64,000 nucleotides of DNA. It comes from Bacteroidota bacterium. GTDB taxonomy: Bacteria; Bacteroidota; Bacteroidia; UBA8524. Below the pieces are notes generated by a model. That model ran no database searches. It had not been told where the DNA came from and worked only from the letters and a program-made list of their open reading frames with translations. Positions 2,362-59,090 of this stretch are shown in pieces. Both the position numbers and the translations under genes were made by a program. The number at the start of each line of letters is the position of its first letter. Position 1 is the stretch's first letter. The stretch spans positions 53,117 to 117,116 of the forward strand of contig WBUH01000011.1 of assembly GCA_008933805.1 (NCBI GenBank), given 5' to 3'.

Positions 2362-2504
2362 GTTTTGCGATTGATAATTGAATGATAGTAAAGAACTTAA
2401 ATGCAAGTTAATGTAATTAATATGACAAAAAAAAGATTTTTTTTGATTGTAACACATTGCCTGTGAGGACATAGGAAGCCAAAAGCACTGCATTAATAAC
2501 AACA

Positions 2505-2545
2505 AAGGCGGGGCATGACTATAAAAGTCATGCCCCGCCTTTTTG
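2505..2545. terminator. rho-independent terminator hairpin (ggcggggcatgact-ataaa-agtcatgccccgcc)
   Basis: A perfect 14-bp stem at 2507-2520 / 2526-2539 with a 5-nt loop, followed by a T-run. It sits immediately downstream of the 3' end of the - strand gene ending at 2562. Confidence 0.7.
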
Positions 2546-2561
2546 ATAAACTTTTCAGGGA

Positions 2562-4349
2562 TTATTCAACCAATAGTAACACCGATTTATTTACACCGTT
2601 CATAGTTATACGAACTGTGTAAGTACCGGTACTCATGTTTGATTTGCTGATATCAATAGGCAAGGTATTGCTTCCTTTTGCAAGGTCAACGCTGCCTGCA
2701 TAATACTGCCTGCCAAGCATATCATAAATGGCTACTTGTGCAGTGGTTGCACTCTCAACCTCTACCGAAACAGCAATGGCTTGCGTACCGGTTTGCATTG
2801 GGTTTGGAGCTACAACAGCTTGCTTATCGCCTTTAGGTTCAGCAGGAGCTACACGGGCATTGCTTCCGCTTGCCAGTGTATTTGCATAGCAAATATTAGC
2901 ATCGTAAGCATTGGTATTTCTCCATTTCATTTTAGCATCAGGCACCAGTTTGTCAACAAAGTTTACACCGGTAGTAGCATAAATTTTTGGCCCGCTGATA
3001 ATGGGCACATCAACGATTATTTGATTGCAAGGAGTTTCGCCGTTAAAGTAGGCTTTCACCAAATACATATCATAGTTACCGTTAATTACAGGGCCTGAAG
3101 CACCTTCCCTAAAGCCAAATACGCTAATACCATCGGCACCTGTACCGTTGTATTGATCGATAGCAATACCATAATCAATACGGCCATCGCCATAGGTAAA
3201 CTGACCGAAACCGCTGGTAGAACCACCGTCTTCAATTTTATCTACCAATATGTCATAGTCGCCCAAAAGGCCCCTGTACACATATCCGGCAGCATAATAT
3301 TCAAAATTACCCGATGTGTTTTTGCGTTCGATAATATCGTTACACACGTTTTGTGTACCGGGATTACCGTTATAATCGTGCAGGGTAGCCCACAAGGTAT
3401 TACCCACGTGGTCGGTTTTGTTCAACCAAACATCTTCGCTACCTGCCCTATCGCTGTAACCGCCTATAATGTAACCATCGCTACCGCCCTTAGTACTTTG
3501 GGCAATATCAATAGCATTAAACGATTCTGATGAGGCAGTAGTACCGTACAAGTTAACAGCAGCCATTGGGTTACCGTTAGCAGCATCCAACCTCAGCATA
3601 TAACCGTCAGGCAATGCTCCCGAAACGTTTTCGCGGGTTTCGCCCACAACAACTATTTCTTTGTTTCCGGTAGGTGAATAAGGGCTGGTGATAACGTCTT
3701 TACCAAATGCAATACCGGCACCTGAACTGTAAACGATATCATAAATACCGCTCCATACAAGTCCGCCGGAGTTTACATCAATCATCATGGCAAAGGGGTC
3801 TAAAGTACCGCTGGTAGTAGTTACAGTTCCTGTAACATACACTTCGTTACCGCCTGTGAAGATAGATTCGTAAATACCTCCTACAGAAATAACATCCTGT
3901 CCTGTACCGCCACCTGCGGGTATATAGGTATAAATTACGCTTACGTTTCCGGCTTGGTCCATCATTAAGTAAAACACCCCTGTAGTTGCAGGAAATACTG
4001 AATAATCAGCAAATTGGCCAATGATACCAAAACCATTACCGTTGTTCATTTCAAAGGCTTTTGATTCGCCCACATGAACTACGTTTCCGGTTACTGAGCT
4101 GATTAGAAAATACCAGCCGTTAAAATAGGGTGCTCCGGTAATATTACCGGTACCGTCGGTGCGTGAAACCGATAGCCCTTGCTGGCTATGATGGCCCACT
4201 AAGAAATGTCCCATGCTCGAAATAGCTGGGTCAGTGTTGATACCTGATGAAAGTTTTTGTCCGTCCGTAGTTCCATAGATGTGATGGAAATACTGTGCAT
4301 TTGCTGTTAACCCGGTTAACACCATTGCAATTAAGAATAGCTTTTTCAT
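2562..4349 (-). CDS. secreted T9SS type A C-terminal sorting domain protein, paralog 2
   Basis: ATG at 4347-4349 gives 'MKKLFLIAMVLTGLTANAQYFHHIYGTTDGQKLSSGINT'. The C-terminus 'VAPNPMQTGTQAIAVSVEVESATTAQVAIYDMLGRQYYAGSVDLAKGSNTLPIDISKSNMSTGTYTVRITMNGVNKSVLLLVE' is a Por_Secre_tail. Long blocks are identical to paralog 3. Confidence 0.8.
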   Translation of the reverse strand: MKKLFLIAMVLTGLTANAQYFHHIYGTTDGQKLSSGINTDPAISSMGHFLVGHHSQQGLSVSRTDGTGNITGAPYFNGWYFLISSVTGNVVHVGESKAFEMNNGNGFGIIGQFADYSVFPATTGVFYLMMDQAGNVSVIYTYIPAGGGTGQDVISVGGIYESIFTGGNEVYVTGTVTTTSGTLDPFAMMIDVNSGGLVWSGIYDIVYSSGAGIAFGKDVITSPYSPTGNKEIVVVGETRENVSGALPDGYMLRLDAANGNPMAAVNLYGTTASSESFNAIDIAQSTKGGSDGYIIGGYSDRAGSEDVWLNKTDHVGNTLWATLHDYNGNPGTQNVCNDIIERKNTSGNFEYYAAGYVYRGLLGDYDILVDKIEDGGSTSGFGQFTYGDGRIDYGIAIDQYNGTGADGISVFGFREGASGPVINGNYDMYLVKAYFNGETPCNQIIVDVPIISGPKIYATTGVNFVDKLVPDAKMKWRNTNAYDANICYANTLASGSNARVAPAEPKGDKQAVVAPNPMQTGTQAIAVSVEVESATTAQVAIYDMLGRQYYAGSVDLAKGSNTLPIDISKSNMSTGTYTVRITMNGVNKSVLLLVE

Positions 4350-4481
4350 GCTTTTGATAGATAGTTTAAATTGTTCTAAAAGAACTTTTTGCAAGTTATA
4401 GCAAATTAAATCATAAAAAAAACAACTTTCAACAAACGCAGTAACCACAAGGGTTTAAGCCATGTCAACTTAAAAAACAAA

Positions 4482-4512
4482 AAGGGTGGCTGCGTTGCAC
4501 ACAGCCACCCTT
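4482..4512. terminator. rho-independent terminator (gggtggctg-cgttgcaca-cagccaccc) with a T-run on the minus-strand transcript
   Basis: A 9-bp GC-rich stem. The - strand transcript continues into 'tttttgtttttt' (the complement of 4471-4483). It lies downstream of the gene ending at 4538. Confidence 0.7.
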
Positions 4513-4537
4513 GTATAATTATGCGTTATAGTGCTAA

Positions 4538-6328
4538 TTATTCAACTAGCAGTAACACCGATTTGTTTTCACCGTTCATGGTTATACGAAGTGTATAGGT
4601 ACCTGCACTCATGTTTGATTTGCTGATATCAATAGGCAAGGTATTGCTTCCTTTTGTCAGGGTAACGCTACCTGTATAGTATTGTCTGCCCAGCATATCA
4701 TAAATAGCTAGTTGCGCAGTGGTTGCACTTTCAACCTCTACCGAAACAGCAATGGTTTGCGCACCGGTTTGCATTGGGTTGGGTGCTACAACAGCTTGTT
4801 TATCGCCTTTAGGTTCAGCAGGAGCAACACGGGCATTGCTGCCTGCACCAAGGCTGGTAGCAAAACAAATATTCAGGTCGTTTGCTGTGGTTTGTCCCCA
4901 ATTAAAAAGGGTTAATGGCACCAAGCGGTCAACCAAATTTGCCGACACAGATGTCATTAGTCCGGGGCCTGATGCATTAATAGCATCCACTATTTTTTGA
5001 TTGCAAGGAGTTTCACCGTTAAAGTAGGCTTTCACCAAATACATATCATAGTTACCGTTAATAACAGGAGAGCTGTATGCTTCACGGAAACCAAACACGC
5101 TGATACCGTCTGCACCGGTTCCATTGTATTGGTCGATGGCAATACCGTAATCGGTAAACTTATCACCGTAGGTAAACTGCCCCATTCCGGTGCTTACCCC
5201 CATATCGTTGGTTTTCACAACCACCATGTCATACGTTCCTCCCATCAAACCATTACGCACATAACCTGCGGCATAGTACTCATATTTACCGCCGGTATTC
5301 AAACGTTCAATCACATCGTTACAAACATTCTCAGTACCACCGTTGCCGTTATAATCATGCAAGCTGGCCCAAAGCGAGCCCAAGGTTTGGTCGGTTTTCA
5401 CCAGCCAAAAATCTTCGCTGCCGTTAACGTCGCTGGCTCCGCCTAAAATAAAGCCATCGCTACCTCCTGCGGTAGCATTTGCTATGCTTATAGAGTTAAT
5501 CTCATCCGTTGATGATGTTGTACCGTAAATATCGGCAGCACCTGTAACGGGAATTCCTGTGCTTGCATCAACACGCAAACTGAACGCATCAGGCAATGAA
5601 CCGCCTGTGGGGTCGTATAATTGCCCTACAAGTACTGCCTCGTCAACACCGTTTGGTGTATATGGACTTTCAATAATATCCCTGGAATATGCATAAGCCG
5701 AGCCTGCACCTGAAGCCAGTTGTATATCATATATCCACGACCACCTGATACCGCCCGAAGTCATATCAAGTTTCATTGCATAGGCAAATACATTACTGCC
5801 TCCGTAAGCAGAACCTGTAATGTATATATCTTTTCCGCTGCTTAGCACTGATTCTGCAACACCGCCAACATTAAAAATATCAATAACAGTTGTTACACCC
5901 GATGGCACATAAGTAAAGATGTTTGATACACCGCCTGCAGGGGTTAGTTGCATATAGAAAATACCTGTGTTAGGTGCGCCAAGACTTAAATCTTGGAACT
6001 TTCCAACAATACCAAAACCTCCGCCATTGTCCATTTCAAACGCCTCTGATTCCTCAACAAAAACCTGTGAGCCTGTAATTGGACTAAAAAGGGTGTACCA
6101 TCCGTCAAAATAAGGTGCTCCAGTCACGTTTCCTGTAACATCAGTACGAGAAACTGCCAGCCCGTTTTGGCCGTTATGGCCTACCAAAAAATGACCTAAG
6201 CCAAGTGCGTTGGTGTTAATACCCGATGATAGCTTTTCTCCATCCGTTGTCCCGTAAATGTGATGGAAATACTGCGCTTTTGCTGTTAACCCTGTTAACG
6301 CCAAAATAATTAATAGAATTTTTTTCAT
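4538..6328 (-). CDS. secreted T9SS type A C-terminal sorting domain protein, paralog 3
   Basis: It starts 'MKKILLIILALTGLTAKAQYFHHIYGTTDGEKLSSGINT'. The last ~250 residues are nearly identical to paralog 2 (for example 'YEYYAAGYV', 'YDMYLVKAYFNGETPCNQ', 'ARVAPAEPKGDKQAVVAPNPMQTG'). It ends in a canonical T9SS tail '...GTYTLRITMNGENKSVLLLVE'. Confidence 0.8.
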   Translation of the reverse strand: MKKILLIILALTGLTAKAQYFHHIYGTTDGEKLSSGINTNALGLGHFLVGHNGQNGLAVSRTDVTGNVTGAPYFDGWYTLFSPITGSQVFVEESEAFEMDNGGGFGIVGKFQDLSLGAPNTGIFYMQLTPAGGVSNIFTYVPSGVTTVIDIFNVGGVAESVLSSGKDIYITGSAYGGSNVFAYAMKLDMTSGGIRWSWIYDIQLASGAGSAYAYSRDIIESPYTPNGVDEAVLVGQLYDPTGGSLPDAFSLRVDASTGIPVTGAADIYGTTSSTDEINSISIANATAGGSDGFILGGASDVNGSEDFWLVKTDQTLGSLWASLHDYNGNGGTENVCNDVIERLNTGGKYEYYAAGYVRNGLMGGTYDMVVVKTNDMGVSTGMGQFTYGDKFTDYGIAIDQYNGTGADGISVFGFREAYSSPVINGNYDMYLVKAYFNGETPCNQKIVDAINASGPGLMTSVSANLVDRLVPLTLFNWGQTTANDLNICFATSLGAGSNARVAPAEPKGDKQAVVAPNPMQTGAQTIAVSVEVESATTAQLAIYDMLGRQYYTGSVTLTKGSNTLPIDISKSNMSAGTYTLRITMNGENKSVLLLVE

Positions 6329-6599
6329 GCTTTTTGTTTGAATTAGAAAATGATAGGTTGATTGATAGTTTAATCAACTGCAAATTATAGTTTAATGTGA
6401 TAAATGAATACCTGAGAGGAGAATTTTCGATGAAAATCTACCCAACGAAGTGCCACAGAAAACAATAAGACACTATCAATCAAAACATTACAATTCAATT
6501 ATTTTACTACAAAAAGTACGCACGATTATTAAAAGGCAAAAGCTTTTTAAGCTCCTGTTGAGCGTAACTGAATAACATTTGATGCCATGTTTTTAAAAA

Positions 6600-12058: not shown

Positions 12059-13180
12059 TTAATAATTGTTCAGCATCATTGGCATCACAAGCATCAACAT
12101 ATCTTCGCTGGGCTCGTTCTCAAAAGGCAACAATACACCTGCACGGTTAGGCGTACTCATTTCAAAACGTACTTTATCAGTATCCATGCTGGTAAGCATA
12201 TCCATCAGGTATTTACTGTTAAAGCCAATCTCCATGTCTTGTCCTTCGTATTCGCAATTCAAACGCTCGTGGCCTTCATTGCTTTGGTCAAAATCTTCAG
12301 CAGAGATAATCATATTGCTACCGGCCAGTTTCAAACGTATTTGGTGGGTAGTTTTGTTTGATACAATAGAGATACGGCGCACTGAGCTTAAAAACTCACC
12401 CCTGTCAATCACTAACTTGTTAGGATTTTCTTTGGGGATAACCGCGTTATAATCAGGGTAACGTTCGTCAATCAAGCGGCACACCAAACTCACATCACCA
12501 AACGAGAAGAACGCGTTGGCGTTGTTAAAATCAACACGCACAGCAGTTTCATCATCCTTCAACGATGATTTTAGCAGGTTAGATGCCTTTTTAGGTAAGA
12601 TAAACGATTGCTCAACACCGGGGGCAACATCCACACGTTTGTAGCGCACCAAACGGTTTGCATCAGTAGCTACAAAAGAGATGTCGTTATTTTTCAACTC
12701 AACAAAAATACCGGTAAGGTTCAGACGCAATTCATCATTACCCGTAGCAAATACTGTTTTGGCTATAGCCTTCAACAATACCTCGCTCTTAATGCTGAAT
12801 GATTTATCGCTTTCTACCTCTGGTATTTTTGGGAAATCTTCACCGGGCTGACCTGCAAGTTTAAAGCGGCCGTTACCCGAGCTGATTTCGATAGCATGGG
12901 TTTTTTCATCAATAGTAAACGTAAGCGGCTGATCAGGCAGCGAACGCAAAATATCAAGACAAAGTTTAGAGGGTACAGCTATCTGGCCTTCTTCCTGTGC
13001 TTCTACCTTCAAGGTAGTAGTCATACTGGTTTCAAGGTCAGTAGCACTAATGGTAAGGTTACCTTCCTTAATGTCAAACAAGAAGTTCTCTAAAATAGGA
13101 ATAACCGCCTTTGATACCACCACACCACTCACCACCGAAAGGTGCTCCAGCAAAACTGTTTTGGAAACTATAAACTTCAT
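12059..13180 (-). CDS. dnaN: DNA polymerase III beta subunit (sliding clamp)
   Basis: 373 aa starting 'MKFIVSKTVLLEHLSVVSGVV', with a three-domain beta-clamp pattern ('LKAIAKTVFA', 'IRLKLAGSNMIISAEDFD'). Confidence 0.9.
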   Translation of the reverse strand: MKFIVSKTVLLEHLSVVSGVVVSKAVIPILENFLFDIKEGNLTISATDLETSMTTTLKVEAQEEGQIAVPSKLCLDILRSLPDQPLTFTIDEKTHAIEISSGNGRFKLAGQPGEDFPKIPEVESDKSFSIKSEVLLKAIAKTVFATGNDELRLNLTGIFVELKNNDISFVATDANRLVRYKRVDVAPGVEQSFILPKKASNLLKSSLKDDETAVRVDFNNANAFFSFGDVSLVCRLIDERYPDYNAVIPKENPNKLVIDRGEFLSSVRRISIVSNKTTHQIRLKLAGSNMIISAEDFDQSNEGHERLNCEYEGQDMEIGFNSKYLMDMLTSMDTDKVRFEMSTPNRAGVLLPFENEPSEDMLMLVMPMMLNNY

Positions 13181-13345
13181 ACCTTGCTCTACTATTGTTG
13201 TTATTTAAAATGCCAAAATTAGGGGCACTGTGCAATATAGTCAATTGTTATTTATCTACATTTATTTGTTCAGGGTGTTCGCAAGGTGTGTTTAAGTAAA
13301 CACAATCCCTCTCATACAGGCGTATATCTGTAAAGTAATTACCTG

Positions 13346-14164
13346 CTACAATGTAATAGTGTTTGGAAACGAAAGATGCACCCGTCCTTCTAACACGGCT
13401 TTTTTATAGGCCAATGGTGTAATTGTAGTAAATGCCTTAAACGTTCTAATAAAATGGGCTTGGTCGTAAAAACCGTTATCCAATGCCACATCCACCAACG
13501 GAATGCGCGGGTGGTTGGCTATCTGGGCAATGGCTGCGTTCACTTGTTTCAGCCGCAAATACTTTTGCGGACTTAGCCCGTACACTTCACTAAACGCATG
13601 AATAAACTTTTTGTGCGAAAATCGCTTTTCGTCCAAAAACTGTTTAATACGTCCCTTTTGCAAAGGCTCTTGGGTAGTTATTTCGGCAAACTCCAACACA
13701 TCTTCGGCTGTTTTTGCAGGTTGTGCCGCCTTTAACAAAAACCTTTCAAGGTGCTTAATTTTATCCGTCGCGTTTTTTGTATGCTCAATTTCTGCAATCA
13801 CCGAACTTATTGCAGTGCCGAAAATATAAGACAACGGGCGCGGAACTCCCAACCCTGATATATCAATACCCAGCAAGCGGTGCAGCCCTTGGGGCTTAAA
13901 CATAATGCCCAACGCCTTGTACCTTCCCGATACTTTGGTAGTTAATTGTTGTTGGTAGATGCCCGATACCCCGCCTGCTTTGGTATAGGAAAATGCTGCA
14001 TTACCGGTTTGGATTGAAAACTCTTCACCGAAATTGATGATGATTTCTTGTTGCAAAAAAGGGATGCTTACCGATGCATACTCCCATTGCTCCTCGCTTT
14101 GATACCAAATGCACTCAATCACCTCTTTCAACTCATTATCAGGCGTATGGATGAGGGCATTCAT
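13346..14164 (-). CDS. AraC family transcriptional regulator
   Basis: The C-terminal AraC-type HTH is present ('FIHAFSEVYGLSPQKYLRLKQVNAAIAQIANHPRIPLVDVALDNGFYDQAHFIRTFKAFTTITPLAYKK'). Confidence 0.8.
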   Translation of the reverse strand: MNALIHTPDNELKEVIECIWYQSEEQWEYASVSIPFLQQEIIINFGEEFSIQTGNAAFSYTKAGGVSGIYQQQLTTKVSGRYKALGIMFKPQGLHRLLGIDISGLGVPRPLSYIFGTAISSVIAEIEHTKNATDKIKHLERFLLKAAQPAKTAEDVLEFAEITTQEPLQKGRIKQFLDEKRFSHKKFIHAFSEVYGLSPQKYLRLKQVNAAIAQIANHPRIPLVDVALDNGFYDQAHFIRTFKAFTTITPLAYKKAVLEGRVHLSFPNTITL

Positions 14165-14204
14165 AGCGCAAAATTAGTTAAATAAGAACTACTGTACCTA
14201 ACCC

Positions 14205-14320
14205 GTTTTGCTAACAGGCATAAAGCCCATACTGTTGCGCCCATCGTCCCGAATGATTTTAAACCATTCGGGATGAACCATTAAAAAGCAGCGGGTTTTA
14301 TACCCGTCGAGAAAATTGGT
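14205..14320. repeat. compound-hairpin dispersed repeat (MITE/REP-like), copy 1 of 4 in the window
   Basis: It contains 'ggcataaagccc', the palindrome 'cgtcccgaatg-attttaaaccattcgggatg' and 'cgggttttatacccg'. It is ~85-90% identical to 14962-15080. Confidence 0.7.
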
Positions 14321-14420
14321 ATAAAACCTATTGACTTAATAGTTAAAAAGATAGAAAGGCATCACAACTACATGATAAATATTTTCTAATCATGAAGTTA
14401 CAATAATATAAGTAGCCTCA

Positions 14421-14879
14421 TTATTTTATTCTATATACCCTGTCGGCTAGAGATATGCGCATACGCGTTGAATCAACCGTGGCAAATGCTTTTGTAATGA
14501 TAACAATGCCTGTAGATTTTAATTGCCTGATTTTAGCAATTACCTCAGGTGAAAAACTTGAGCCTACTATTCCAAAAGAATCTGTTTCATTCTCAACCTT
14601 TCCGGTATATTTATTTCTTATCCGTTGCGACGTAACAACCGTAAATGAGTCAACAGTTATGCCTGGCTCAGGCTTATAACCAACATAAACCACAAGAGTA
14701 GGGTTTCGCAACAAACTGTCTACTGTTGTGAATCCATCATTAACATTCCCTACTTTAAAGAATATTGTTGAAATATATCCAATCTTTGCTTTTGTGCTGT
14801 CTTTTTTGGTTGATTGTCCAGCAACCGTGAGCGGCATTGTTAATAGAGCTATAAAAACACACCATCTTGCCATATTCAA
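14421..14879 (-). CDS. small secreted hypothetical protein (signal peptide) flanked by two direct copies of the ~110-bp repeat
   Basis: 152 aa with N-terminus 'MNMARWCVFIALLTMPLTVAGQ'. No recognisable domain. Confidence 0.5.
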   Translation of the reverse strand: MNMARWCVFIALLTMPLTVAGQSTKKDSTKAKIGYISTIFFKVGNVNDGFTTVDSLLRNPTLVVYVGYKPEPGITVDSFTVVTSQRIRNKYTGKVENETDSFGIVGSSFSPEVIAKIRQLKSTGIVIITKAFATVDSTRMRISLADRVYRIK

Positions 14880-14961
14880 CGATTAATTTCATTTTAAAAC
14901 GGATTACCATCGCTTTTATTTTAAAAGTTAATTCCTAACAGGTGAAAACCAAAAAGACGGC

Positions 14962-15080
14962 TCTTATTCTGACGGGCATAAAGCCCATCGCTGTTGCGCC
15001 CATCGTCCCGAATGGTTTAAAACCATTTGGGACGAACCATTAAAAAGCGGCGGGTTTTATACCCGTCGGAACAATAGATT
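14962..15080. repeat. compound-hairpin dispersed repeat, copy 2 (direct relative to copy 1)
   Basis: 'gacgggcataaagcccatcgctgttgcgcccatcgtcccgaatggtttaaaaccatttgggacgaaccattaaaaagcggcgggttttatacccgtcgg' aligns to 14205-14320. Confidence 0.7.
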
Positions 15081-15151
15081 TCAACCTCGCCCAAGCAAAC
15101 AATAACAAAACTGCAGGCCTGTTTTTACACAAACCTTCATTACTTTGTAGC

Positions 15152-16975
15152 ATGGTAAGATACATTGGGGTACTTTTAATGGTGGCCGGGTTTGCTACCC
15201 AAAGCATTGCACAAAAAGCAAACAAGCACCAGCAAATGGCTGATTCCTTTTTTGTGTTGGCACAGTATGAAACAGCCATCAAATACTACGATTCAGCACA
15301 AAAAACCTCTCCAACCGACAATATTATCATGTTCCGCAAGGGGATATGTTATTATAACCTTCAAAAAAGCAAAGAAGCAAAAGCCAGTTTCGACAAAGCG
15401 TTGCAGCAAAACCCCCGCTGTTTGTATTGCGAGTATTTTTTGATTTCAATACTTACCGAGGCACAGCAAACTGATGCTGCTTTGCACAAGGCCGACAGTG
15501 TACTTACTAAATATGCCGATACAGGCAAAGTACTTAGTTCATACATGGATATAAAAGCATTGAAAGCCCGTATATACTGGAACAGAGGCCAGCTTGAAAA
15601 AGCAGGAGCGGTGTATGATGAATTGGTGACCGATTACCCTGATACCGCCGGTGTATATTACTTACGCGGTGAGTTTAACTTTATAAATCAACGAAAATCA
15701 GGGGCGATAAAGGATGTAACTAAAGCCATCGAGTTAGACCCTAATGTTGCCGCATACTATTTTTTGAAGGCCAAAATTTACCTTACCATCAACTACTATA
15801 AAGAAACCCTGCCCATTATTAATAAGGCAATTGAGCTGAATAGTGAAGAGGGTGAGTTTTACGGATACAGAGGAGGCATTCATCATCATTTAGGCAATTA
15901 TAATGAGGCACTGAACGACTACATACTTGCATTAAAATACAACGGTGCAGGCGGTTTCTACAACGCCAAGGTTTCAGAACTATACTTGATAAAGGAAGAC
16001 ATGGACTCCATGTGTTTTTACTTGCAACGCTCAAAAGAATCTTTTGAAAAAGACCCTCCGGCTATGCAAGAAGACATTGATATGCAAACACTGGTATTGC
16101 ATAGGCAGCAGGAGTTTTGCGATAATAGTAAACCCGGTTATTATTACCAACGCGGAGTAGCTATGTATAACCTCGGCTTGTACGATAGCTCGATTTATTT
16201 TTATACAGCGGGGCTTGAAAAGTTTGTAAACCAACCCGTGATGCACAACTTTAGGGGCAATGCTTATGTAAAAACAGGCGAATGGGCAAAGGCTGAAAAA
16301 GACTTTTTATTATCGATGCAAAACCCCGAGGAACTTAAAAAAACGCTTGCAGAACGCTTTAAATACGACGACCCTCAAGCCAATGAGCGGTATTACAAAG
16401 GATTTATTGCCTCAGCATATTTGGGTTTATCTGAAGTATATCTGCAAATGGGGTATTACGATAAAGCCATAAAAGCTGCTGATAGCGCCTTAAACATTGC
16501 CCCCATCGGCAGCGGCATCCCCCTTGCAGATTATTATAACCAGTTGGGAAGATCATACCTTGCTGCGGGTAACTACGACAAAGCAATAAGTGAGTTTGAA
16601 AAAGTAATCACACTTGAAGCTGAAAACCCGATAGGGCACATAAATTTGGGGTTAGCAACGGCTTATAAAGCCACTGAAACTCCTGAAACAAACAGGAAAT
16701 TCGGATTTTCAGGCACTTGGAATTCGGGAACTTCACAGCTAAAGTTTGAAAGTAAACCCATAAAACTTACCCAAAACCAGCAAAAATTAATGCAAGATGC
16801 CATTGGCTATTGTGATAAAGCCATACAGTTTGCTCCACAAGAAGCTCAGTTTTATGTAATACGCGCTTACGTGAAAAACATGGCCGGAAATAAAGATGTT
16901 TGTGCAGACATAACAAGGGCAAAAGCATTGGATATAAAAAGCATAAACGAATCTTTAAGCAGCCTGTGCCCTTAA
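15152..16975 (+). CDS. tetratricopeptide (TPR) repeat protein, secreted/periplasmic
   Basis: Signal peptide 'MVRYIGVLLMVAGFATQSIAQ'. Multiple 34-aa TPR-like units with (W/Y)..G..Y...G.Y..A...Y..AL spacing ('AIKYYDSAQK', 'YYLRGEFNF', 'AYYFLKAKIY', 'YYQRGVAMYNLGLYDSSIYFY'). Confidence 0.7.
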   Translation: MVRYIGVLLMVAGFATQSIAQKANKHQQMADSFFVLAQYETAIKYYDSAQKTSPTDNIIMFRKGICYYNLQKSKEAKASFDKALQQNPRCLYCEYFLISILTEAQQTDAALHKADSVLTKYADTGKVLSSYMDIKALKARIYWNRGQLEKAGAVYDELVTDYPDTAGVYYLRGEFNFINQRKSGAIKDVTKAIELDPNVAAYYFLKAKIYLTINYYKETLPIINKAIELNSEEGEFYGYRGGIHHHLGNYNEALNDYILALKYNGAGGFYNAKVSELYLIKEDMDSMCFYLQRSKESFEKDPPAMQEDIDMQTLVLHRQQEFCDNSKPGYYYQRGVAMYNLGLYDSSIYFYTAGLEKFVNQPVMHNFRGNAYVKTGEWAKAEKDFLLSMQNPEELKKTLAERFKYDDPQANERYYKGFIASAYLGLSEVYLQMGYYDKAIKAADSALNIAPIGSGIPLADYYNQLGRSYLAAGNYDKAISEFEKVITLEAENPIGHINLGLATAYKATETPETNRKFGFSGTWNSGTSQLKFESKPIKLTQNQQKLMQDAIGYCDKAIQFAPQEAQFYVIRAYVKNMAGNKDVCADITRAKALDIKSINESLSSLCP

Positions 16976-17073
16976 TCAAGCACAGACAGACAAACAAGCT
17001 ATCTATTTGAAAATAAACGAATAACAAAGTTTACTGAAAAAATTATAGCTTTGACTTAAACAAAACACTAACC

Positions 17074-18099
17074 ATGAAAATCCTAAAAACTATTCTTAAA
17101 GTATTAGGGGTTATTTTACTGCTGGTAATAATAATCTCCCTGTTTTTGCCTGCGGGCGTCAGAGTTGAGCGTTCAATTACTGTGAATGCCTCACCCGAAG
17201 AGGTGTATGCACACATCAGTGATTTGAAAAAATGGGATACGTGGTCGCCTTGGAAAAAGCGTGACCCAAATATGCAAAACACTTATGAAGGGACTGACGG
17301 TGCTGTAGGCCAAAAAAGCATTTGGAAAAGCGAACACCCAAGAGTAGGTAATGGCTCAATGACCATTGTAGAGCTGAAACCCTACGAATCAGTAGTTACC
17401 GAACTTGATTTTGGACAAGGCGGAAAACCCAAGGGAGGTTTCAAAATTGAAAAAACCGATAGCGGCTCAAAAGTAACGTGGTACATGGAAGACGACGGTT
17501 CACAAACACCGTTTTTATTTAAAATAGTGGCCAAATACGCTAATCTGATGATGGACGGTATGTTGGGTCCTGATTTTGAAGAAGGTCTGAAAGGTATTAA
17601 AACTGCTGCTGAAGCAGGTGCCGGCGCAGCACCACAATTAACTTATACTATTGAGGAAGTGGACTTGGCTCCAATGAGTGTGATTGCAGCACCTCCAAAC
17701 AAAATAAAAGCAGATCAGATTTCAGCCTATTTAGGTAAATATATCCCAAAACTATTTGCCGCAGCAAAGAAAAACGGTCAAAAACCCGGAATACCGGCAG
17801 CAATATATCATTCTTGGACAGGCACAGAAACTGAGGTTGAAGCTGTTTTACCAGTTGATAAAGTAGTAATGGAGGGCAGCGAGTTCCCCCACCACCCGAT
17901 GCCTGAAGGAAAAGGGCTTAAGGTAGATTACTACGGCCCTTATGCCGGCTCAGAAAAAGCCCACATGGATATTGATGCGTATGCTAAATACAAAAAACTG
18001 AAACTGGGCAATCCTTGGGAGATATATGTAACTGACCCTACGACTGAAAAAGATACTTCAAAATGGCTTACTCAAATCTACTACCCTATAGTAAAGTAA
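17074..18099 (+). CDS. SRPBCC (polyketide cyclase/AHSA1-like) domain fused to a GyrI-like effector-binding domain; N-terminal TM anchor
   Basis: 'VNASPEEVYAHISDLKKWDTWSPW' is typical of the SRPBCC/Polyketide_cyc2 N-terminus. The C-terminal half ('YHSWTGTETEVEAVLPV...YYGPYAGSEKAHMDIDAY...WEIYVTDP') resembles GyrI-like small-molecule binding domains. Confidence 0.55.
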   Translation: MKILKTILKVLGVILLLVIIISLFLPAGVRVERSITVNASPEEVYAHISDLKKWDTWSPWKKRDPNMQNTYEGTDGAVGQKSIWKSEHPRVGNGSMTIVELKPYESVVTELDFGQGGKPKGGFKIEKTDSGSKVTWYMEDDGSQTPFLFKIVAKYANLMMDGMLGPDFEEGLKGIKTAAEAGAGAAPQLTYTIEEVDLAPMSVIAAPPNKIKADQISAYLGKYIPKLFAAAKKNGQKPGIPAAIYHSWTGTETEVEAVLPVDKVVMEGSEFPHHPMPEGKGLKVDYYGPYAGSEKAHMDIDAYAKYKKLKLGNPWEIYVTDPTTEKDTSKWLTQIYYPIVK

Positions 18100-18149
18100 A
18101 CGATATTTATTATTGCTAAAAAAGGGCGGGGAAACCTGCCCTTTTGCTT

Positions 18150-19133
18150 TTATACCACCATGGTGTTGCAGCCGCGTACCTCGCTAAAATCAAGGCGACC
18201 CAGCACCTCAAAACTTCCGTCGACATATTTCCTACCTAAATCTTCCGTCTCTATAAAACTGCACGAATACAAATTGGCAAGGTCAATCACATTTATTCCG
18301 CCTGTTTTTCCTGTGGCGGCATAGCTAAACGGATCGTCGGCATCGCGCACCAAAACACGCATCCACGGTGGACAAAAGAACCGCCCTTCGCTTTTTGAAT
18401 ACGCCTGTGAAAACAGTTCCGTCATGCCATACTCAGAATGTATGGCCGATGGTCCAAAAGCAGTTTGTAGCTCTGTGTGCAGCTCTTTGCGGGTAATTTC
18501 CTTCCTCCTGCCCTTCATCCCTCCCGTTTCCATAATCAGGGTATGTGTCAACTCCATCGGGTATTGAGCCGCAAAATCAAGCAAAGCAAACGATACCCCC
18601 AGCAACAATGTTTTTTGCCCCTTCGCTTCATTTTGGCGTATTACCTTAGCCAGCCCCTCAAAATCATTCAGGTAAAAGCCGCTATCGGCATGTCCGCTTT
18701 GTTGTTTCAGCTTATCAGCCATATACACCAATGATGAACCCGTACGTTCTAAATAACCGGGTAATAGAGCCAATATGCAATACTCTTGGGGTACACCGTA
18801 AAATAACTCAAATCCCTTGTTAAAAGAGTTTTCATAAACCCCTAAATCAGCGGCAAGGTGGCGGCTTTGTCCCGTACCTGTTGTACTGCTGCTCAAAAAG
18901 GTATGCTGTGCATGCATTCCCTCTGCCAATACATCATGGGTTTTAAAAAAGCGGATAGGCAAAAAGGGTATTTGGTGCAACTGCTGCACCCTAGCCGGAT
19001 TTACCCGTAAAAAATCGAGGTATTGGGCATACACAGCACAGTGTTTTGCCTGAAAACTGAAAACTTCATAAACGCTTTCTTCAAAAAAATCGTTATTTGT
19101 AGTAAATATCTCCTGTTTTAAACGGGTAAGCAT
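18150..19133 (-). CDS. LuxE-like acyl-protein synthetase / acyltransferase family protein
   Basis: 327 aa. The N-terminal pattern 'LKQEIFTTNNDFFEESVYEVFSFQAKHCAVYAQYLDFL' and 'SSSTTGTGQSRH' match Bacteroidota LuxE/PaaK-family acyltransferases as I recall them. Confidence 0.5.
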   Translation of the reverse strand: MLTRLKQEIFTTNNDFFEESVYEVFSFQAKHCAVYAQYLDFLRVNPARVQQLHQIPFLPIRFFKTHDVLAEGMHAQHTFLSSSTTGTGQSRHLAADLGVYENSFNKGFELFYGVPQEYCILALLPGYLERTGSSLVYMADKLKQQSGHADSGFYLNDFEGLAKVIRQNEAKGQKTLLLGVSFALLDFAAQYPMELTHTLIMETGGMKGRRKEITRKELHTELQTAFGPSAIHSEYGMTELFSQAYSKSEGRFFCPPWMRVLVRDADDPFSYAATGKTGGINVIDLANLYSCSFIETEDLGRKYVDGSFEVLGRLDFSEVRGCNTMVV

Positions 19134-19135
19134 CT

Positions 19136-19693
19136 ATGAATGGGTTACAATTATTAAAATATACGGCTATAGCCCTTGTTACGCTAACCGCGCTGCAAAG
19201 TTGCTCGCGAAGCGATGATGGAGGCCCACCTGTTCCCGAATTGGGTTATACGGGATACAGCAAATTTAAAAACACAGCCGGAAAAGACAGCTTTGTTACA
19301 CTAAATCTTACGTTTAAAGACGGTGACGGCGATATAGGCCTAAGCGAAAGCGATTCAGTCCCCCCGTATTCATACGGTAGCCCGTTTTTTAACAACCTTT
19401 TTGTTGAGTTTTATGTGATTGAAAACGGCTTGCCTGCTAAAATCACCTCGCAATTCATCGGCCCTGATACACTATACAAAGACACAGTAAATTTTAGCCA
19501 GCGGATAAAATACCTGACGCCTGAAGGAAAAAATAAAAGTATAAAGGGAAGGATAGATGTAATTACTCCGTTTTTTCTGCTTGATTTGGCTACCTACAAA
19601 CCCGATTCAGTGTATTACGAAATTACCTTGGTCGACCGTAGTCTTAACCGCAGCAATTTGATAAAAACACCCTTGATTATGCTTGACTTTTAA
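19136..19693 (+). CDS. hypothetical lipoprotein
   Basis: 'MNGLQLLKYTAIALVTLTALQSCSRSDDGG' is a lipoprotein signal with a lipobox Cys. No recognisable domain. Confidence 0.55.
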   Translation: MNGLQLLKYTAIALVTLTALQSCSRSDDGGPPVPELGYTGYSKFKNTAGKDSFVTLNLTFKDGDGDIGLSESDSVPPYSYGSPFFNNLFVEFYVIENGLPAKITSQFIGPDTLYKDTVNFSQRIKYLTPEGKNKSIKGRIDVITPFFLLDLATYKPDSVYYEITLVDRSLNRSNLIKTPLIMLDF

Positions 19694-19707
19694 GCGAAGA
19701 GCGACGA

Positions 19708-19956
19708 TTAAAAATCGTCGTCTTCAAAGTCGTCGTCATCATCAAAGTCGTTAAACCCGGTTTGATAACCCGCATCGGTGTCGGTCTCAAAATCATCATC
19801 ATCATCGTCCTCTTCTACATCGCTGTAGTTTTCGTCGTCTTCTTCTTCATCCTCGTCGCCGCTTTTGGGTTTAGCCGCCGAGCGTACAGCACCGTAGTTT
19901 GCTGCACCAAACATTACACTGTTAAAACCTTGAAGGATAGTTCCCTGCATTTTCAT
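19708..19956 (-). CDS. small poly-acidic protein (82 aa; C-terminal two-thirds are almost entirely D/E interspersed with F/Y)
   Basis: 'MKMQGTILQGFNSVMFGAANYGAVRSAAKPKSGDEDEEEDDENYSDVEEDDDDDDFETDTDAGYQTGFNDFDDDDDFEDDDF'. The gat/gac/gaa codon run is read cleanly in this frame. It sits 72 bp downstream of, and co-oriented with, the HDAC-family gene. Confidence 0.5.
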   Translation of the reverse strand: MKMQGTILQGFNSVMFGAANYGAVRSAAKPKSGDEDEEEDDENYSDVEEDDDDDDFETDTDAGYQTGFNDFDDDDDFEDDDF

Positions 19957-20028
19957 CTCAAAATAGAAATTTTATGCTAATTTAAAGGAATTAGGAAAAA
20001 CAATAGCAAGTGAAATTTATAAAAATGC

Positions 20029-20931
20029 TTAAAAATATACCCTCAGGGCTTGCTTAAAGGTATTACAATGGGCATTTACCACATCGCTAAGGCGGGGTGA
20101 GTACCCTCCACCCATGCTCACAACTACAGGAATACCAAGGGCTTTAAGCGTTTCAAACACGTAAGCATCTCGCTGTTCACACCCCTGCATACTCACCGAA
20201 AGCTTCCCTAATTTATCTGTTGCCAAAATATCCACGCCCGACAGGTAAAAGGCAAAAGTGGGTGCAAAGTCGGCAATAATTTTTGGCAAATGGGTATGCA
20301 ACAAGGCAAGGTATTCTGCATCGGCGGTATGGGTAGGCACTTCGATATCCAAATGCGATTTTTCTTTTTTGTAAGGATAATTGTCTTTGCCGTGCATACT
20401 AAAGCAAAACACCTGTTTGCTGCCGGCAAAAATTTGCGCAGTGCCGTTGCCTTGGTGCACGTCTAAATCAATTATCAATATCCGTTCGGCCGGGTTTTGT
20501 TTTAAGAGATAGTTTGCCGCCACCGCAAAATCATTCAGCAGGCAAAAACCCTCCCCGCTACCAGTAAACGCATGATGAGTGCCTCCGGCCACATTCATCG
20601 CTACCCCGTACTCACGTGCATGGACGGTGCAGTCAATGGTTCCCTTGCATATAATAATCTCGCGTTGCACCAACTCTTCCGACAGCGGAAACCCAATTTT
20701 GCGCATCTCTTTCGGGGTCAACTCAAGGTGCTTCATCCGCTGCCAATACTCCGCGTCGTGGGTCAGCAAAATGGTCTCATCGTCCAGCGGTTCTGGTTCA
20801 AAAAGATTGTGCTCAGTTATTGCTCCTTCGTGTATCAGCTGTTTAGGAATCAGGTCGTATTTCTCCATCGGAAAACGGTGACCTTCGGGCAATGGGTGGG
20901 CGTAAATAGGACTCCAAGCTATTTTCAGCAT
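20029..20931 (-). CDS. histone deacetylase / acetoin utilization (AcuC-like) family deacetylase
   Basis: 300 aa of the arginase/deacetylase fold. The conserved HDAC blocks are present: 'GGTHHAF...GFCLLND', 'IIDLDVHQGNGT', 'SMHG...YP', 'GGGY'. Confidence 0.85.
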   Translation of the reverse strand: MLKIAWSPIYAHPLPEGHRFPMEKYDLIPKQLIHEGAITEHNLFEPEPLDDETILLTHDAEYWQRMKHLELTPKEMRKIGFPLSEELVQREIIICKGTIDCTVHAREYGVAMNVAGGTHHAFTGSGEGFCLLNDFAVAANYLLKQNPAERILIIDLDVHQGNGTAQIFAGSKQVFCFSMHGKDNYPYKKEKSHLDIEVPTHTADAEYLALLHTHLPKIIADFAPTFAFYLSGVDILATDKLGKLSVSMQGCEQRDAYVFETLKALGIPVVVSMGGGYSPRLSDVVNAHCNTFKQALRVYF

Positions 20932-20987
20932 TTTGTAGTTATACTTTTTGTAGCGCCTGCTTTATGCAGCAGCTTACCACAACTCAA

Positions 20988-21698
20988 TCAATTAAGATAA
21001 AAAAGCGTTTGATTGTTTTGGGCAGAATCGAAAAAATTAACCGGCTGTTGCCCTTCAACTCCGTCAAGGGTATTTAGACTCCTTAGCGTAGCTGTATAAT
21101 AACCATTCAGGTATTGGCCGTTGCCGTGAAAGCCGTTGTTTTTGTAATCTATTAATTCTATCACTCCGTCGTTGTTATAATCAGTAATGTACAACGCGCC
21201 GGGCAGCCAATCCGTTTGTAACACTGTTATATCTTTTGTTTCAGCAGTATCTATTGCAACCACTGTACACTTTCCGGCAAAAGCACCAGTTTCTTGCGGG
21301 TCAGTCAAAACAAGTACTATAAACCCATTTTTTGAAAGAGGCACAAACAAAACAGCCTCTAACTGCAAACGTGCCCGCTGCAAACTCAACGGAAGCTCCC
21401 ATTTTTTTTCTTTATAGGAAACTATCGGTGTATCAACTATAGCTGTATTTTTTCCCTTATCATCCGACTCATACTCAGGAAATAGCGGAACAAACAGATG
21501 GTTAATTACAATGCTGTCGTTATGATAAACAAACGCTGTTTGGTTGGTAGTTAAAGAAATCGTATCGATTGGCGGTTGCGGATACATTGTTTTTAGCAAC
21601 CCCATAATTGTATCAAAGCCCTGTTTATCGGGCTGCTTATTTGTATTGCATCCGTATACTGTACAGGCAAAGGCAACAATTAACCAATGCCAACGCAT
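20988..21698 (-). CDS. hypothetical lipoprotein
   Basis: The start is taken at ATG 21696-21698 ('MRWHWLIVAFACTVYGCNTNKQ', lipobox). The longer ORF to 21938 overlaps the upstream gene out of frame. Confidence 0.5.
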   Translation of the reverse strand: MRWHWLIVAFACTVYGCNTNKQPDKQGFDTIMGLLKTMYPQPPIDTISLTTNQTAFVYHNDSIVINHLFVPLFPEYESDDKGKNTAIVDTPIVSYKEKKWELPLSLQRARLQLEAVLFVPLSKNGFIVLVLTDPQETGAFAGKCTVVAIDTAETKDITVLQTDWLPGALYITDYNNDGVIELIDYKNNGFHGNGQYLNGYYTATLRSLNTLDGVEGQQPVNFFDSAQNNQTLFYLN

Positions 21699-22488: not shown

Positions 22489-25400
22489 TTATTTCAAAAA
22501 CACTTTCACGGTTTTATAAACATTGTTACCGTTTACTTTTACCAGATAGTAGCCCGTTGATACTCCGTTTACGGTTAGGGTTTGTATTTGGTTGCCTGTG
22601 AAGCTTACAGGGGCTTGTACCGTTCTGCCCAACAAGTCTAACACTTCTACCGTGTAGCTTGTTGTGTTGGGTGCATTGATGGTAATAGTGTTACCCGTGC
22701 TGCCCACATACACAGGAACTTTGTTTTCTGTTACTTCTTCTACACTTACGCCGCTTTTCTTGCTGAAACGTAGTTCAAAACGGTTGGCTGTATTGCTAAG
22801 GTCGTGGGCAAAGGTGTAATCGCCTTTGGTGATGTCGTGTTTAGCTCCGCTTTGCTTGTCTTCTAATTCAACGGTGATATTAGGAGCCATGTTTTCTTTG
22901 GTGAAGCTGAAGGTGTATTGTCCTGCTTCTTTGGCTTCAAAACTTAGTTGGGCTGCTTCATTGTTTTCGGGCAATGTGTTCCATACTTCTTTGTTCGCTT
23001 TCTTGCCTTCTAATACAAAGTATAAGTTGGGAGCTGCTAAGTTAGGACGTTTGTTACCGTCCATCACATCGTAACCGTTGGTAGCGTTATCATCGGTATA
23101 AAACTTCACTTTGTCTGTTTTGCCGTTGTTGTCGCTTACTTGTACTTGTACAAAGTTGGGCAGACTGGTTTTATCAAAGTAGTTTACCAAACTGTCTGTT
23201 GTTCTGGCACTGTTCTTTAAAGTGATGCTGGTGTTGTTTGTGGTTACTTCTATCAGCATCGGGGTAAAGGGCGGGATTACTCCGTTATCCGTTCCGTCAA
23301 ATACTTGGTATGCTCCTGCGCTTTGGTTGTATAACCATACTTGGTTGCCTTGTACACCACCGCTGTTAATCGTGATGTTGTTATCGTCCCAGGTAAATCC
23401 GCTGGGCCATGGGTTGCCTATGTAATGCCAGCCTGTGGTATCTGCCATTGAGCCTGTACGGGTGAGGTTAGCGTGGGTATAGTCGGATGTTCCTCGGTAA
23501 GATCCTTGGATATCTAAAGTAAGGGGAAGCGGATTAGCCCAGCTTGAAGTACCGCCCATATAAATAGAGTAGGCACTGTCGCCAAAGGCTGCACTCGTGC
23601 CTGAAGGAATTGACCAATAAGGTGAGGTTTGCTCGTTAAAGTAATACACGGTAGCAAAACCATTATCAGGTGTACCGAAGTTAAGGTTTACATCGTCGTT
23701 TACTTGTGCTAAGGTTGCTCCGCTAACGGGTGAGTTCACAGGTCTCCAATCGGCTCCGCCTCCTGCTATCAGCATTTCAGCGGTTACGCTGCCGCTTAGA
23801 GTACCTGTGCCTGTGCCTGCTATCTGGCCATAGGTGGTTGCTCCCGTGGCTTCTAATTTTAGTTTGTCATTGGTGGTTAGGGTACCGCTGGTAAGAGTAA
23901 GTACTCCGTTGATGCCAAGTGAGTCCTGTATGGTAGCTCCTGCACTATTGTTCAGTTGCAGGTTACGGGTAGTACCCGTTCCGTAAATGTTCTGGGCTGA
24001 AGTACCGTCTAATACTATTTTACCTACTCCGCTTACAGTTCCGTTGTTGGTGTAGTTACTCTTTATGTTTAAATCACCGCTTAGGCTGGCGGTGGTTCCG
24101 CTATTCACCGTTAAGGTGTTTAACACTGCACCGGAAGCGATTGTAGCCGTTCCGGCTGAAACAGTACAAACACAAGATACGGTAGAGCCGCTGGGGCTAG
24201 AACCTACCCAGCCGTTGTTGTATTCAAGTTCGCAGGTACTATTTTGAAAAAAGTAGGCCGCTCCGGCATTGCTTTTATAGTTTCCGCCGGCACTGTCCCA
24301 ATCGTTACCGGCACCTTGTGTACCCGAGCTTATTAATGCATACGTTCCGTCAACTGCTACTGCTGTACCAAAGCGATCACCGGCTACACGGGCACTGTCA
24401 GTATCGGGCGGGGTTAGCTTTTTGCTGTAGCCCCAAACGCCGTTGCTTTTCTTAAACACATAGGCAGCCCCCGATGTAGATTTGAAGTTAACACCAGAGC
24501 TGTCCCAATCCTGCTGTGAAGCACCTATTAATATATAATTACCGCTTATGCTTAATGAGTTACCAAACCCATCACCAATCTTCCTTGCACTATCACTGGT
24601 ATTGGAGGGTGGGGTAAGTTTTTTCACATATCCCCATACCCCGTTATTGCGTTCAAAAACATACGCTGCTCCGGTTTGTAGGGCAAAATTGCCGCCCGCA
24701 CTGTCATAATCATTGCTAACCGCCCCTACTACCAGTGTAGTGCCTTGTAAACTCATGTTTTGCCCAAATTGGTCGCTGCCTACCCTTGCGCTATCGGTAT
24801 TGGGCGGGGTTAGTTTTTTGGCATACCCCCATACTCCGTTTCTTCGTTCAAACATATATACCGCACCGGCCAAACTTTTAAATCTGCCGCCCGCACTGTC
24901 CCAGTCTTGTCCATTGGCACCCACTGCTATATAATCACCGCTAACGGCTACAGCAACACCAAAGTTATCACTGGCTACCCTTGCACTATCGGTATTGGGG
25001 GGGGTTATTTTCTTTTGAAAACCCCAAACCCCGTTCACCCTTTCGTATATCCACGCTGCACCGGCATTACTTTTACCGTTACCGTTGGCACTATCCCGGT
25101 CATGGCCCGGCGCGCCTACTACAATGGTAGTGCCATCTATGGCCACCCTTGTACCAAACTGGTCCAAACTTTGTCGGTCGGGTGCAGTAATTTTTTTCAC
25201 TTGCGTCCATGCTCCAACGCTGTTTCGTTCCCAGATATAAGCAGCTCCGGCTGATGACATATTGTTAAACCCTGTGGAGTCAAAATCATGGTCGCGTGCA
25301 CCCACCACACAATAATCACCACTGATACCGACAGAAATACCAAAAAAATCACTTGTGGCACGGGCAGTATCTCCCCCGCCTGAACTTCTTGGAGACAGTC

Positions 25401-44569: not shown

Positions 44570-44680
44570 ACACGGGCCTGAATATAAAATTCAGGCCTTT
44601 TGCGGATTTATCCCCAATGGTTTAAAAGCATTCGAGATAAACCATTGAGCAAAACACGGGCTTTATGCCCGTTGCCACAA
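44570..44680. repeat. compound-hairpin dispersed repeat, copy 3
   Basis: 'cctgaatataaaattcaggcc', 'ccccaatggtttaaaagcattcgag...aaccattg' and 'cgggctttatgcccg' are the same modules as at 58965-59090 and 14205/14962. Confidence 0.65.
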
Positions 44681-58927: not shown

Positions 58928-58964
58928 TAATGCTTGGTATAAAAGAATAGTCACGGGTTTAAAG

Positions 58965-59090
58965 CTCGTGGCAAAATTACCTGAATATAAAATTCAGGTC
59001 TTTAAACGGTAACGTCCCCAATGGTTTTAAACCATTGGGGACGTATCTATTAAAAGAGGCGGGCTTTATGCCCGTCGACAAAACGGGTTT
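58965..59090. repeat. compound-hairpin dispersed repeat, copy 4 (most complete copy)
   Basis: 'cctgaatataaaattcaggtc', 'cgtccccaatggttttaaaccattggggacg' (perfect 13-bp palindrome arms), 'cgggctttatgcccg'. Confidence 0.7.

Follow-up and report, generated by a model that had tools for sequence, protein, structure and literature searches.

Probable lineage-specific insertion of a small gene at a resident REP-like repeat in an uncultured Bacteroidia lineage

Results

A small gene lies between two direct copies of a three-hairpin repeat

In a 64,000-nucleotide stretch of contig WBUH01000011.1 (hereafter the window), which comes from an uncultured member of the Bacteroidia, the spacer between an AraC gene and a TPR gene contains a small gene on the minus strand (14421–14879) that is predicted to encode a protein of 152 aa from a TTG start codon, or of 150 aa from the ATG at 14873. 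This gene has a copy of a compound-hairpin repeat on either side. Copy c1 (~14208–14320) has the start of the AraC gene on one side and, ~100 bp away on the other, the 3′ end of the small gene. Copy c2 (~14966–15078) separates the small gene, ~90 bp away, from the TPR gene, and these two genes start on either side of it in divergent directions. As a preliminary description of the locus had reported, the two copies are in the same orientation; they are direct repeats with a start-to-start distance of 759 bp and are 90.1% identical over 101 aligned columns. The analyses described here suggest that the small gene is probably a lineage-specific insertion at a resident repeat that resembles the repetitive extragenic palindromic (REP) sequences and bacterial interspersed mosaic elements (BIMEs) of other bacteria, and that c1 and c2 are descendants of a single copy.

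The repeat (hereafter the element) is ~105 nt long and is made up of three hairpins at fixed spacing, joined by two linkers of ~16 nt each that vary freely among copies. Hairpin C, at the center, forms a palindrome of 31 nt (CGTCCCGAATGGTTT-W-AAACCATTCGGGACG); hairpin B, on the right, reads CGGGC-TTTAT-GCCCGTC, and the left hairpin is either of type A (CCCTGAAT-ATAAA-ATTCAGGG) or of type B′ (GACGGGC-ATAAA-GCCCG), the latter being the inverse of the right hairpin. The three-palindrome build proposed in the preliminary description was therefore correct, with the refinement that c1 and c2 are of a B′-C-B subtype and that two further copies in the window, c3 and c4, are of the commoner A-C-B subtype. 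Since the outer hairpins of the B′-C-B subtype are able to pair with each other, the whole unit amounts to one large imperfect palindrome. In c1 the hairpins B′, C (31 nt) and B occupy positions 14215–14229, 14245–14275 and 14292–14306, respectively; in c2 they occupy positions 14973–14987, 15004–15034 and 15051–15065.

A covariance model of the element scored c1–c4 best on the plus strand, at 71–117 bits (E values of 6e-15 to 9e-26), and found exactly four strong copies in the window, with weak matches only in a cluster of repeats at 47.2–47.5 kb. A pattern for the central palindrome matched the window four times, as against 0.00 matches expected from shuffling, and a pattern for the right hairpin (CGGGYTTTATRCCCG) matched nine times, as against 0.63. 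Folding each copy, a check that had been proposed earlier, gave energies far below those of its own shuffles (z = −4.3 to −10.2). Taken together, the pattern counts and the z-scores indicate that the four copies are not there by chance. Copy c1 scored 71 bits and c2 scored 96 bits, with a folding energy of −62 kcal/mol for c2 (z = −8.9). The two copies that had been described elsewhere in the window were found at 44574–44679 (c3) and 58977–59082 (c4), both on the plus strand. The first of these (88 bits), whose central hairpin has decayed, lies between the divergent genes for a DnaG primase and an Lhr-type helicase; the second (117 bits, z = −10.2) lies between convergent genes and has an additional B-like hairpin immediately upstream (58950–58972). 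Copy c4 is kept at the orthologous site in two of the loci that we fetched from relatives, which are designated by L-numbers (94% identity in L001 and 93% in L034), and every difference between c4 and its L001 orthologue falls in the linkers or the flanks.

The corresponding site in two relatives contains one element and no gene

The L005 locus, from the metagenome-assembled genome (MAG) CALRQL02, aligns to window positions 13308–14309 at 94% identity and to positions 14969–21211 at 92%. Because ~100 bp of L005 are used in both alignments, L005 has one element between its AraC and TPR genes and no small gene. The AraC–TPR spacer of L019, a Joint Genome Institute metagenome contig, likewise has a single element and lacks the gene. 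Thus the difference in gene content between conserved flanks that the preliminary description had anticipated does occur, and the gene is not a syntenic, universal feature of the relatives. In a four-way alignment the breakpoints coincide with the element edges. The flanks of the lone element in the relatives correspond, on the left, to that of c1 (93.6% identity in L005 and 85.1% in L019) and, on the right, to that of c2 (81% and 77%, respectively). A tree of the flanking genes pairs the window with L005 (95% identity at the nucleotide level), with L019 at 83% and 75%. Relatives retrieved through DnaN (L035–L039) and through AraC (L021 and L022) had another gene order or no element and were uninformative as to whether the site is filled or empty. 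Synteny between L005 (1–857) and the window (12450–13307) is lost immediately downstream of the AraC gene, where the window has dnaN and L005 has unrelated sequence; the adjacency of the AraC gene and dnaN is kept in L019 and L021.

The linkers, which vary freely in the family at large, reveal how the copies are related. At these positions c1 and c2 match each other at 27/28, c2 matches the single copy of L005 at 25/28 and c1 matches it at 24/28; the corresponding figure for unrelated family members has a median of 13/28 and a maximum of ~20/28. Matches so far above those between unrelated copies show that, as judged by base identity, both c1 and c2 descend from the resident element and that neither was brought in. 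Over the whole element, identity is 90.1% between c1 and c2, 88.1% between c1 and the L005 element and 90.1% between c2 and the L005 element, and each of these three is ~79–80% identical to the L019 element. In the left half of the element, the three are mutually 87.5–91.7% identical, as against 65–71% to the L019 element. Moreover, three derived states are common to c1 and c2, one of them a compensatory change from C-G to T-A in hairpin B, and each copy also has private changes. At every c1-specific and c2-specific position the L005 element keeps the shared state, and it is not a hybrid with a left part from c1 and a right part from c2.

Since c1 and c2 are closer to each other and to the L005 element than to the L019 element, the duplication is younger than the split from L019, and the single-element site is therefore the older state. 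The comparison of the elements thus shows, with the qualification about gene conversion given in the Discussion, that the polarity is one of gain in the lineage of the window, and the same divergence figures date the event to about the time of the split between the window and L005.

The inserted DNA is low in GC and encodes a very rare protein

The DNA present in the window and absent from both L005 and L019 spans positions 14321–14965 (~650 bp). Its GC content is 33–37%, as against 40–46% in the flanking genes. The protein that it encodes has a signal-peptide-like N terminus (MARWCVFIALLTMPLTVAG|Q), as read from the sequence only. A Pfam scan at E ≤ 10 returned only noise and no known domain, and a word-seeded search with the protein returned only the protein itself. 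A full HMMER search against 1.84 billion representatives detected two distant homologues (E = 1e-9 and 7e-5) that share motifs with the small protein, the longer of which also has a signal-like N terminus. By these matches the small protein is a member of a real but very rare protein family. An AlphaFold model made with the three-sequence alignment was unusable (predicted local distance difference test score of 34). The low GC content of the insert, together with the occurrence of only two distant homologues of its protein, suggests that the insert is foreign.

The insert has no inverted or direct terminal repeats, and there is no integrase or transposase among the called genes within 15.7 kb of the site. 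A blastn search of the insert against the window and all fetched loci gave only chance-level fragments, searches of phages and plasmids with the protein and the DNA gave no match, and none of these searches, nor the protein searches described above, placed the gene at any other location. We examined the surroundings of one distant homologue (P0039 in L023), in which no elements are present.

The end of the insert that adjoins c1 carries a degenerate additional REP-like unit on the plus strand (14315–14331; ATTGGTATAAAACCTAT), an inverted partner of hairpin B with 3 mismatches to ACAGGTATAAAACCTGT, a pattern that has four matches in the window as against 0.23 expected. This unit is absent from the empty sites of the relatives; units of its type also follow B in compound repeats of the relatives, and a weaker one was seen by eye near 14933–14950.

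The element belongs to a dispersed intergenic family

By its DnaN, whose best named matches are 60–67% identical, the organism groups with uncultured Bacteroidia. An exact scan of a genome collection with the core pattern of the element returned 17 loci, of which ~14 are true elements: 11 of the loci are in MAG CALRQL02, 3 in a MAG designated "Bacteroidia bacterium" and 3 in Formosa. The same scan of metagenomes returned 11 loci with 10 true elements, ten coming from assembly OFDN01, of the same species group; viral contigs gave 0 matches to the core pattern. The matches in Formosa and in L003, L013 and L032 proved to be plain terminator-like hairpins that lack the outer modules and were not counted as family members. 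CALRQL02, the source of L001, L002, L004–L007, L009, L014 and L015, was deposited as "Agrobacterium sp. 719_389", an alphaproteobacterial name; as its DNA is 88–95% identical to that of this Bacteroidia window, the label is evidently wrong.

Within the fetched loci of the relatives, the covariance model located elements at ~45 distinct places, a figure that includes the second family described below. All copies are intergenic and none lies inside a long open reading frame. They occur between convergent, divergent and unidirectional genes, and their orientation relative to neighboring genes shows no consistent bias. The 26 A-C-B copies, orthologues and array members included, are found in both orientations. 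The build is mosaic, with A-C-B, B′-C-B and additional B or D units arranged in a constant geometry. Among 23 A-C-B copies, 94.4% of the cells in the stems are paired and nine pairs have changed on both sides, a result that was reached by none of 500 shuffles.

Tandem arrays of two to four elements, with a period of 185–280 bp, are present in L004 (12–582), L014 (7613–7904), L015 (7260–7980), L024 (3477–3828), L025 (11154–11987), L028 (4462–4759) and L031 (3318–3609). The arrays of L014 and L031 represent one place in two assemblies of one species, their copies being 99% identical, and those of L004 and L025 may be orthologous; independent array places thus number about five. In the L015 and L004 arrays the spacers are repeated too, which indicates local tandem duplication of an element together with its spacer. 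Only orthologues and members of an array have linkers in common. Orthologous copies are conserved across species (L001, L034, L005 and L019), and among the orthologous sites that we compared we saw no difference in presence or absence of the element itself.

Several features of the copies resemble those of transcription terminators. CTTTT follows hairpin A in nearly all copies, and short T tracts follow both outer hairpins and point inward. In c1 and c2, B read on the opposite strand precedes C(C/T)GCTTTTTA, and a simple scan classes the combination as terminator-like. On the minus strand of c1, B plus CTGCTTTTTA is terminator-like, with a stem that starts 115 nt downstream of the stop codon of the small gene. 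Many copies lie 1–55 nt past a stop codon, and others lie between divergent genes. We infer that the element is a structural or terminator-like intergenic module. It is plausible that the terminator-like hairpin and TTTTT tract of c1, positioned downstream of the inserted gene and ahead of the AraC gene, are the reason that the arrangement is tolerated. A thiamine pyrophosphate (TPP) riboswitch upstream of an 848-aa gene was seen ~300 nt downstream of a copy of the element (L009 5279–5441 and L030 5575–5737).

The element is BIME-like and differs from other known repeats

In the broad sense the element is a fair example of the REP family to which the preliminary description had tentatively assigned it. 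It consists of short imperfect palindromes that are repeated in many intergenic copies, with covarying hairpins, a mosaic build in either orientation and regular spacing. Like the BIME and REP units of the Enterobacteria and of Pseudomonas, its palindromic units have a fixed order and spacing, occur in either orientation and lie strictly between genes; also as in BIMEs, the linkers are variable and the hairpins conserved, orthologous sites are stable and copies form clusters and arrays. Indeed, the inverted B′…B pair is like the REP doublet that is referred to as a REPIN (REP doublet forming a hairpin). However, the unit sequences of BIMEs are unrelated to those of this element, in which a long central hairpin of 15 bp is an obligatory middle part, and the host here is an uncultured lineage of the Bacteroidia. 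The REPIN–RAYT system is defined by a single-copy REP-associated tyrosine transposase (RAYT; a Y1 HUH transposase) flanked by the same REPs; among the genes called around this site there is no transposase.

In the narrower sense of Di Nocera et al. 2013 (PMC3733652), a REP of either super-family carries an unpaired tetranucleotide, GTAG or CGTC, at one of its ends; CGTC REPs also have a CCA-like tail, a loop of 4–5 nt and a stem of 8–9 bp that starts with A-T pairs. The element falls outside this definition: the CGTC of hairpins C and B sits inside the stems, paired with GACG, and the stems, of 15 bp (C) and 5–7 bp (B), start with C-G or G-C pairs, unlike those of CGTC REPs. The dRS3 repeats of Neisseria are CGTC-1 REPs that are clustered in mosaic regions (PMC3733652). 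The intergenic mosaic elements of Neisseria, made up of dRS3 and RS units, are like the family described here in forming mosaic clusters of repeats between genes. At the "minimal mobile element" of Neisseria, gene content varies between close relatives at a site that is bounded by conserved genes and repeats; there, transformation and flanking homology drive the exchange, and phages are known to integrate at dRS3. The locus in the window shows a similar site-specific difference in gene content, but both of its repeats are duplicates of a resident copy.

The preliminary description had also raised the possibility that the element is a miniature inverted-repeat transposable element (MITE), and it does share with MITEs such as Correia elements, ERIC and RUP the character of a ~100-nt non-coding intergenic repeat with long hairpins, a kind that sometimes supplies terminators or promoters. 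The comparison goes no further. The majority subtype, A-C-B, has different hairpins at its two ends and hence no terminal inverted repeats, only the rare B′-C-B subtype having inverted ends. No target-site duplication was noticed by eye in the flanks that we read, no systematic scan having been run. Copies that are neither orthologous nor in tandem share their hairpins only, orthologous copies are conserved and no insertion polymorphism was seen. We therefore rejected the MITE reading; to our knowledge, moreover, the element has no parent insertion sequence.

Rfam gave no match at the gathering threshold in the window and none of note at E ≤ 1 in positions 14150–15150, and in 13 related loci it identified only unrelated TPP riboswitches. 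We found no description of this repeat family in the literature. On the basis of its sequence, then, this family of uncultured Bacteroidia represents a known type of bacterial repeat, of which it is a previously undescribed member, and on present evidence the locus is not a new kind of mobile element.

A second family has the same geometry, and other repeats occur in the window

A second repeat family, found in the loci of the relatives and absent from the window, has three hairpins in the same geometry and a length of ~105 nt, but its sequence is unrelated. Its nine copies are located in L009 (1174–1281), L012 (6065–6171), L014 (7462–7568), L016 (4708–4815), L017 (1320–1425), L019 (7041–7146), L024 (5653–5759), L027 (13983–14088) and L030 (1472–1579). 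In the 20-bp central stem of this family both the base (ATTACC/GGTAAT) and the tip (GGACTTAAGTCC) are conserved. Between these, a 10-bp middle segment varies among the nine copies, with two to four pair types per position, and in this segment 90/90 cells are Watson–Crick, with no G-U pair and no mismatch; over the whole structure, compensatory changes are found in 17/32 pairs. Pairing of this kind suggests either that symmetry is maintained at the level of DNA or that selection is very strong. Further tripartite variants occur in L031 (320–425 and 477–582) and L002 (2861–2957), for example with the central hairpin GTTTCAGGAGGGTTTTAAACCCTCTTGAAAC. By this comparison it is architecture, and not sequence, that these genomes share, and the geometry common to both sequence-unrelated families points to a shared structural role, which might be two-way termination or insulation.

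Other repeats were seen in the window itself. The 1.3-kb non-coding stretch between the Lhr-type helicase gene and the next gene (47164–48467) contains several further families of short hairpins and direct repeats, densely packed, and part of the stretch is common to L034. Another repeat family (GATTGCTTCG…CGAAGACGGCCTCCTCGCAATGACG) is present in three or four copies at intervals of ~130–700 bp (53098–54016). At positions 689–6334, repeats recur every ~1,980–2,010 bp in stretches that are 69–94% identical; these are probably three or four tandem paralogous units, that is, paralogous genes in a row. An 85-nt repeat at 24340–25606 is probably a motif repeated within a repeat-domain gene.

Discussion

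The interpretation that we favor, and that we consider probable, is one of gene gain at a resident element. The ancestral AraC–TPR spacer would have contained a single element, and ~650 bp of lower-GC DNA with the small secreted-protein gene would have been inserted there in the lineage of the window, after the split from L019 and around the time of the split from L005. In the same or a closely linked event, the ~110-bp element would have been duplicated so as to leave one copy on each side of the insert. The structure would have persisted since then as its copies diverged by 10%, a divergence that shows it to be old and not recently mobile; it would not be a cassette that is mobile today. As to the route, we place somewhat less than half of the weight, the largest share, on a local duplication of the element followed by the entry of foreign DNA between the copies. 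This route is judged the likeliest because the family often undergoes such duplication, having formed arrays at five non-orthologous places. Alternatively, a break may have occurred at the fully palindromic B′-C-B copy, with a repair event that captured foreign DNA and in which the element was re-synthesized on both ends.

A wider proposal, to which we assign a low probability, is that B′-C-B is a landing site prone to breakage or recombination that captures foreign DNA without a dedicated recombinase, and that the tripartite elements, those of the second family with its hypervariable yet wholly Watson–Crick central stem included, are kept by a DNA-level symmetrizing of palindromes rather than by selection on RNA. 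A cruciform or hairpin might be cleaved, for example, with each end regenerating a whole element and the gene becoming fixed between the copies. If true, this would constitute a distinct repeat-based route of gene gain.

Several observations weigh against our interpretation or its dating. The filled site is known once: apart from the window, only contig L018 codes for the small protein, and because the two sequences are 100% identical L018 does not count as an independent instance. The searches of the window, the fetched loci, phages and plasmids identified no source of the insert. The spacer that would be expected from a simple tandem duplication leaves no recognizable trace, and the right flank of c1 is only weakly similar to the resident right flank (56% over 32 nt). 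A terminator role makes no sense for the copies between divergent genes. The main caveat with respect to the dating is gene conversion, which, if it took place between c1 and c2, could give a false appearance of common descent and make the event look younger than it is. Finally, the divergence between c1 and c2 roughly equals that between either copy and the L005 element, such that L005 may represent either a pre-insertion or a post-deletion state.

This last point bears on the possibility that a gene between two elements is ancestral, and that the single element of L005, and possibly that of L019, was left by homologous recombination between the two repeats, which deleted the gene together with one copy. 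Direct repeats of 110 bp that are 759 bp apart are a classic substrate for deletion, and the predicted product, one element with the left flank of c1 and the right flank of c2, matches what is observed; the divergence figures make such a history tenable for L005 alone. However, on the tree of the flanking genes two independent deletions would be required. The greater closeness of c1 and c2 to the L005 element than to the L019 element implies, unless gene conversion homogenized them, that they are younger than the split from L019, and the L005 element lacks the hybrid composition noted above. The low GC content and the rarity of the gene fit acquisition, and an ancestral arrangement would still require an event of formation, merely an earlier one. 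We therefore regard deletion as unlikely.

The preliminary description had suggested that the gene with its flanking repeats looks like a mobilized cassette, for which two forms may be envisaged. In one, a circle that carried the gene and an element integrated into the resident element, in the manner of an integron cassette at attC or by a Campbell-type crossover, so that the flanks are hybrid and the cassette is mobile. The topology, in which one copy becomes two copies plus a gene, is the expected one, and the arrangement does resemble that of integron cassettes: a single gene between ~100-nt direct imperfect palindromes of attC-like size, in which structure is conserved more than sequence. 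In addition, the central hairpin offers 31 bp of near-identity among family members for homologous pairing, and a hairpin of the family type is present at the inner end of the insert. However, each integron cassette brings its own attC, whereas here the sites on the two sides of the gene are nearly identical and derive from a single resident site: in both linkers, c1 and c2 each agree with the resident at 24–27/28, as against a median of 13/28 for independent family members, and no part of either looks imported. By eye, the copies contain no GTTRRRY or RYYYAAC core sites (the R and L sites of integrons), no integrase is encoded nearby, and the elements are dispersed singly in the spacers of core genes rather than in an array of different cassettes. 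The gene itself was found nowhere else, viral contigs, phages and plasmids gave no matches, and the homologue that was examined lies away from any element. We accordingly rejected the integron cassette reading as such, and we consider integration of a circular cassette in general to be very improbable. In the other form, two MITEs would mobilize whatever lies between them, as in integron mobilization units. The presence of two direct copies around a single gene and the terminal inverted repeats of the B′-C-B subtype are in keeping with such a composite, transposon-like unit. It predicts an empty site that is free of the element, however, and L005 and L019 retain one element at the exact position; no target-site duplication was noticed by eye outside the pair, and no second copy of the unit was found. 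We rejected this form, whose probability we judge to be close to negligible. In both forms, the description as a mobilized cassette is at odds with the resident derivation of both copies, with an insert that lacks terminal repeats and with a gene that was found at no other location.

If the gain of the small gene occurred as we propose, the locus provides a clean before-and-after view of the acquisition of a single gene at an intergenic palindromic repeat, one in which the repeat was duplicated and not imported. It would thus bear on the part that REP-like repeats play in shaping the gene content of lineages that are known only from metagenomes.

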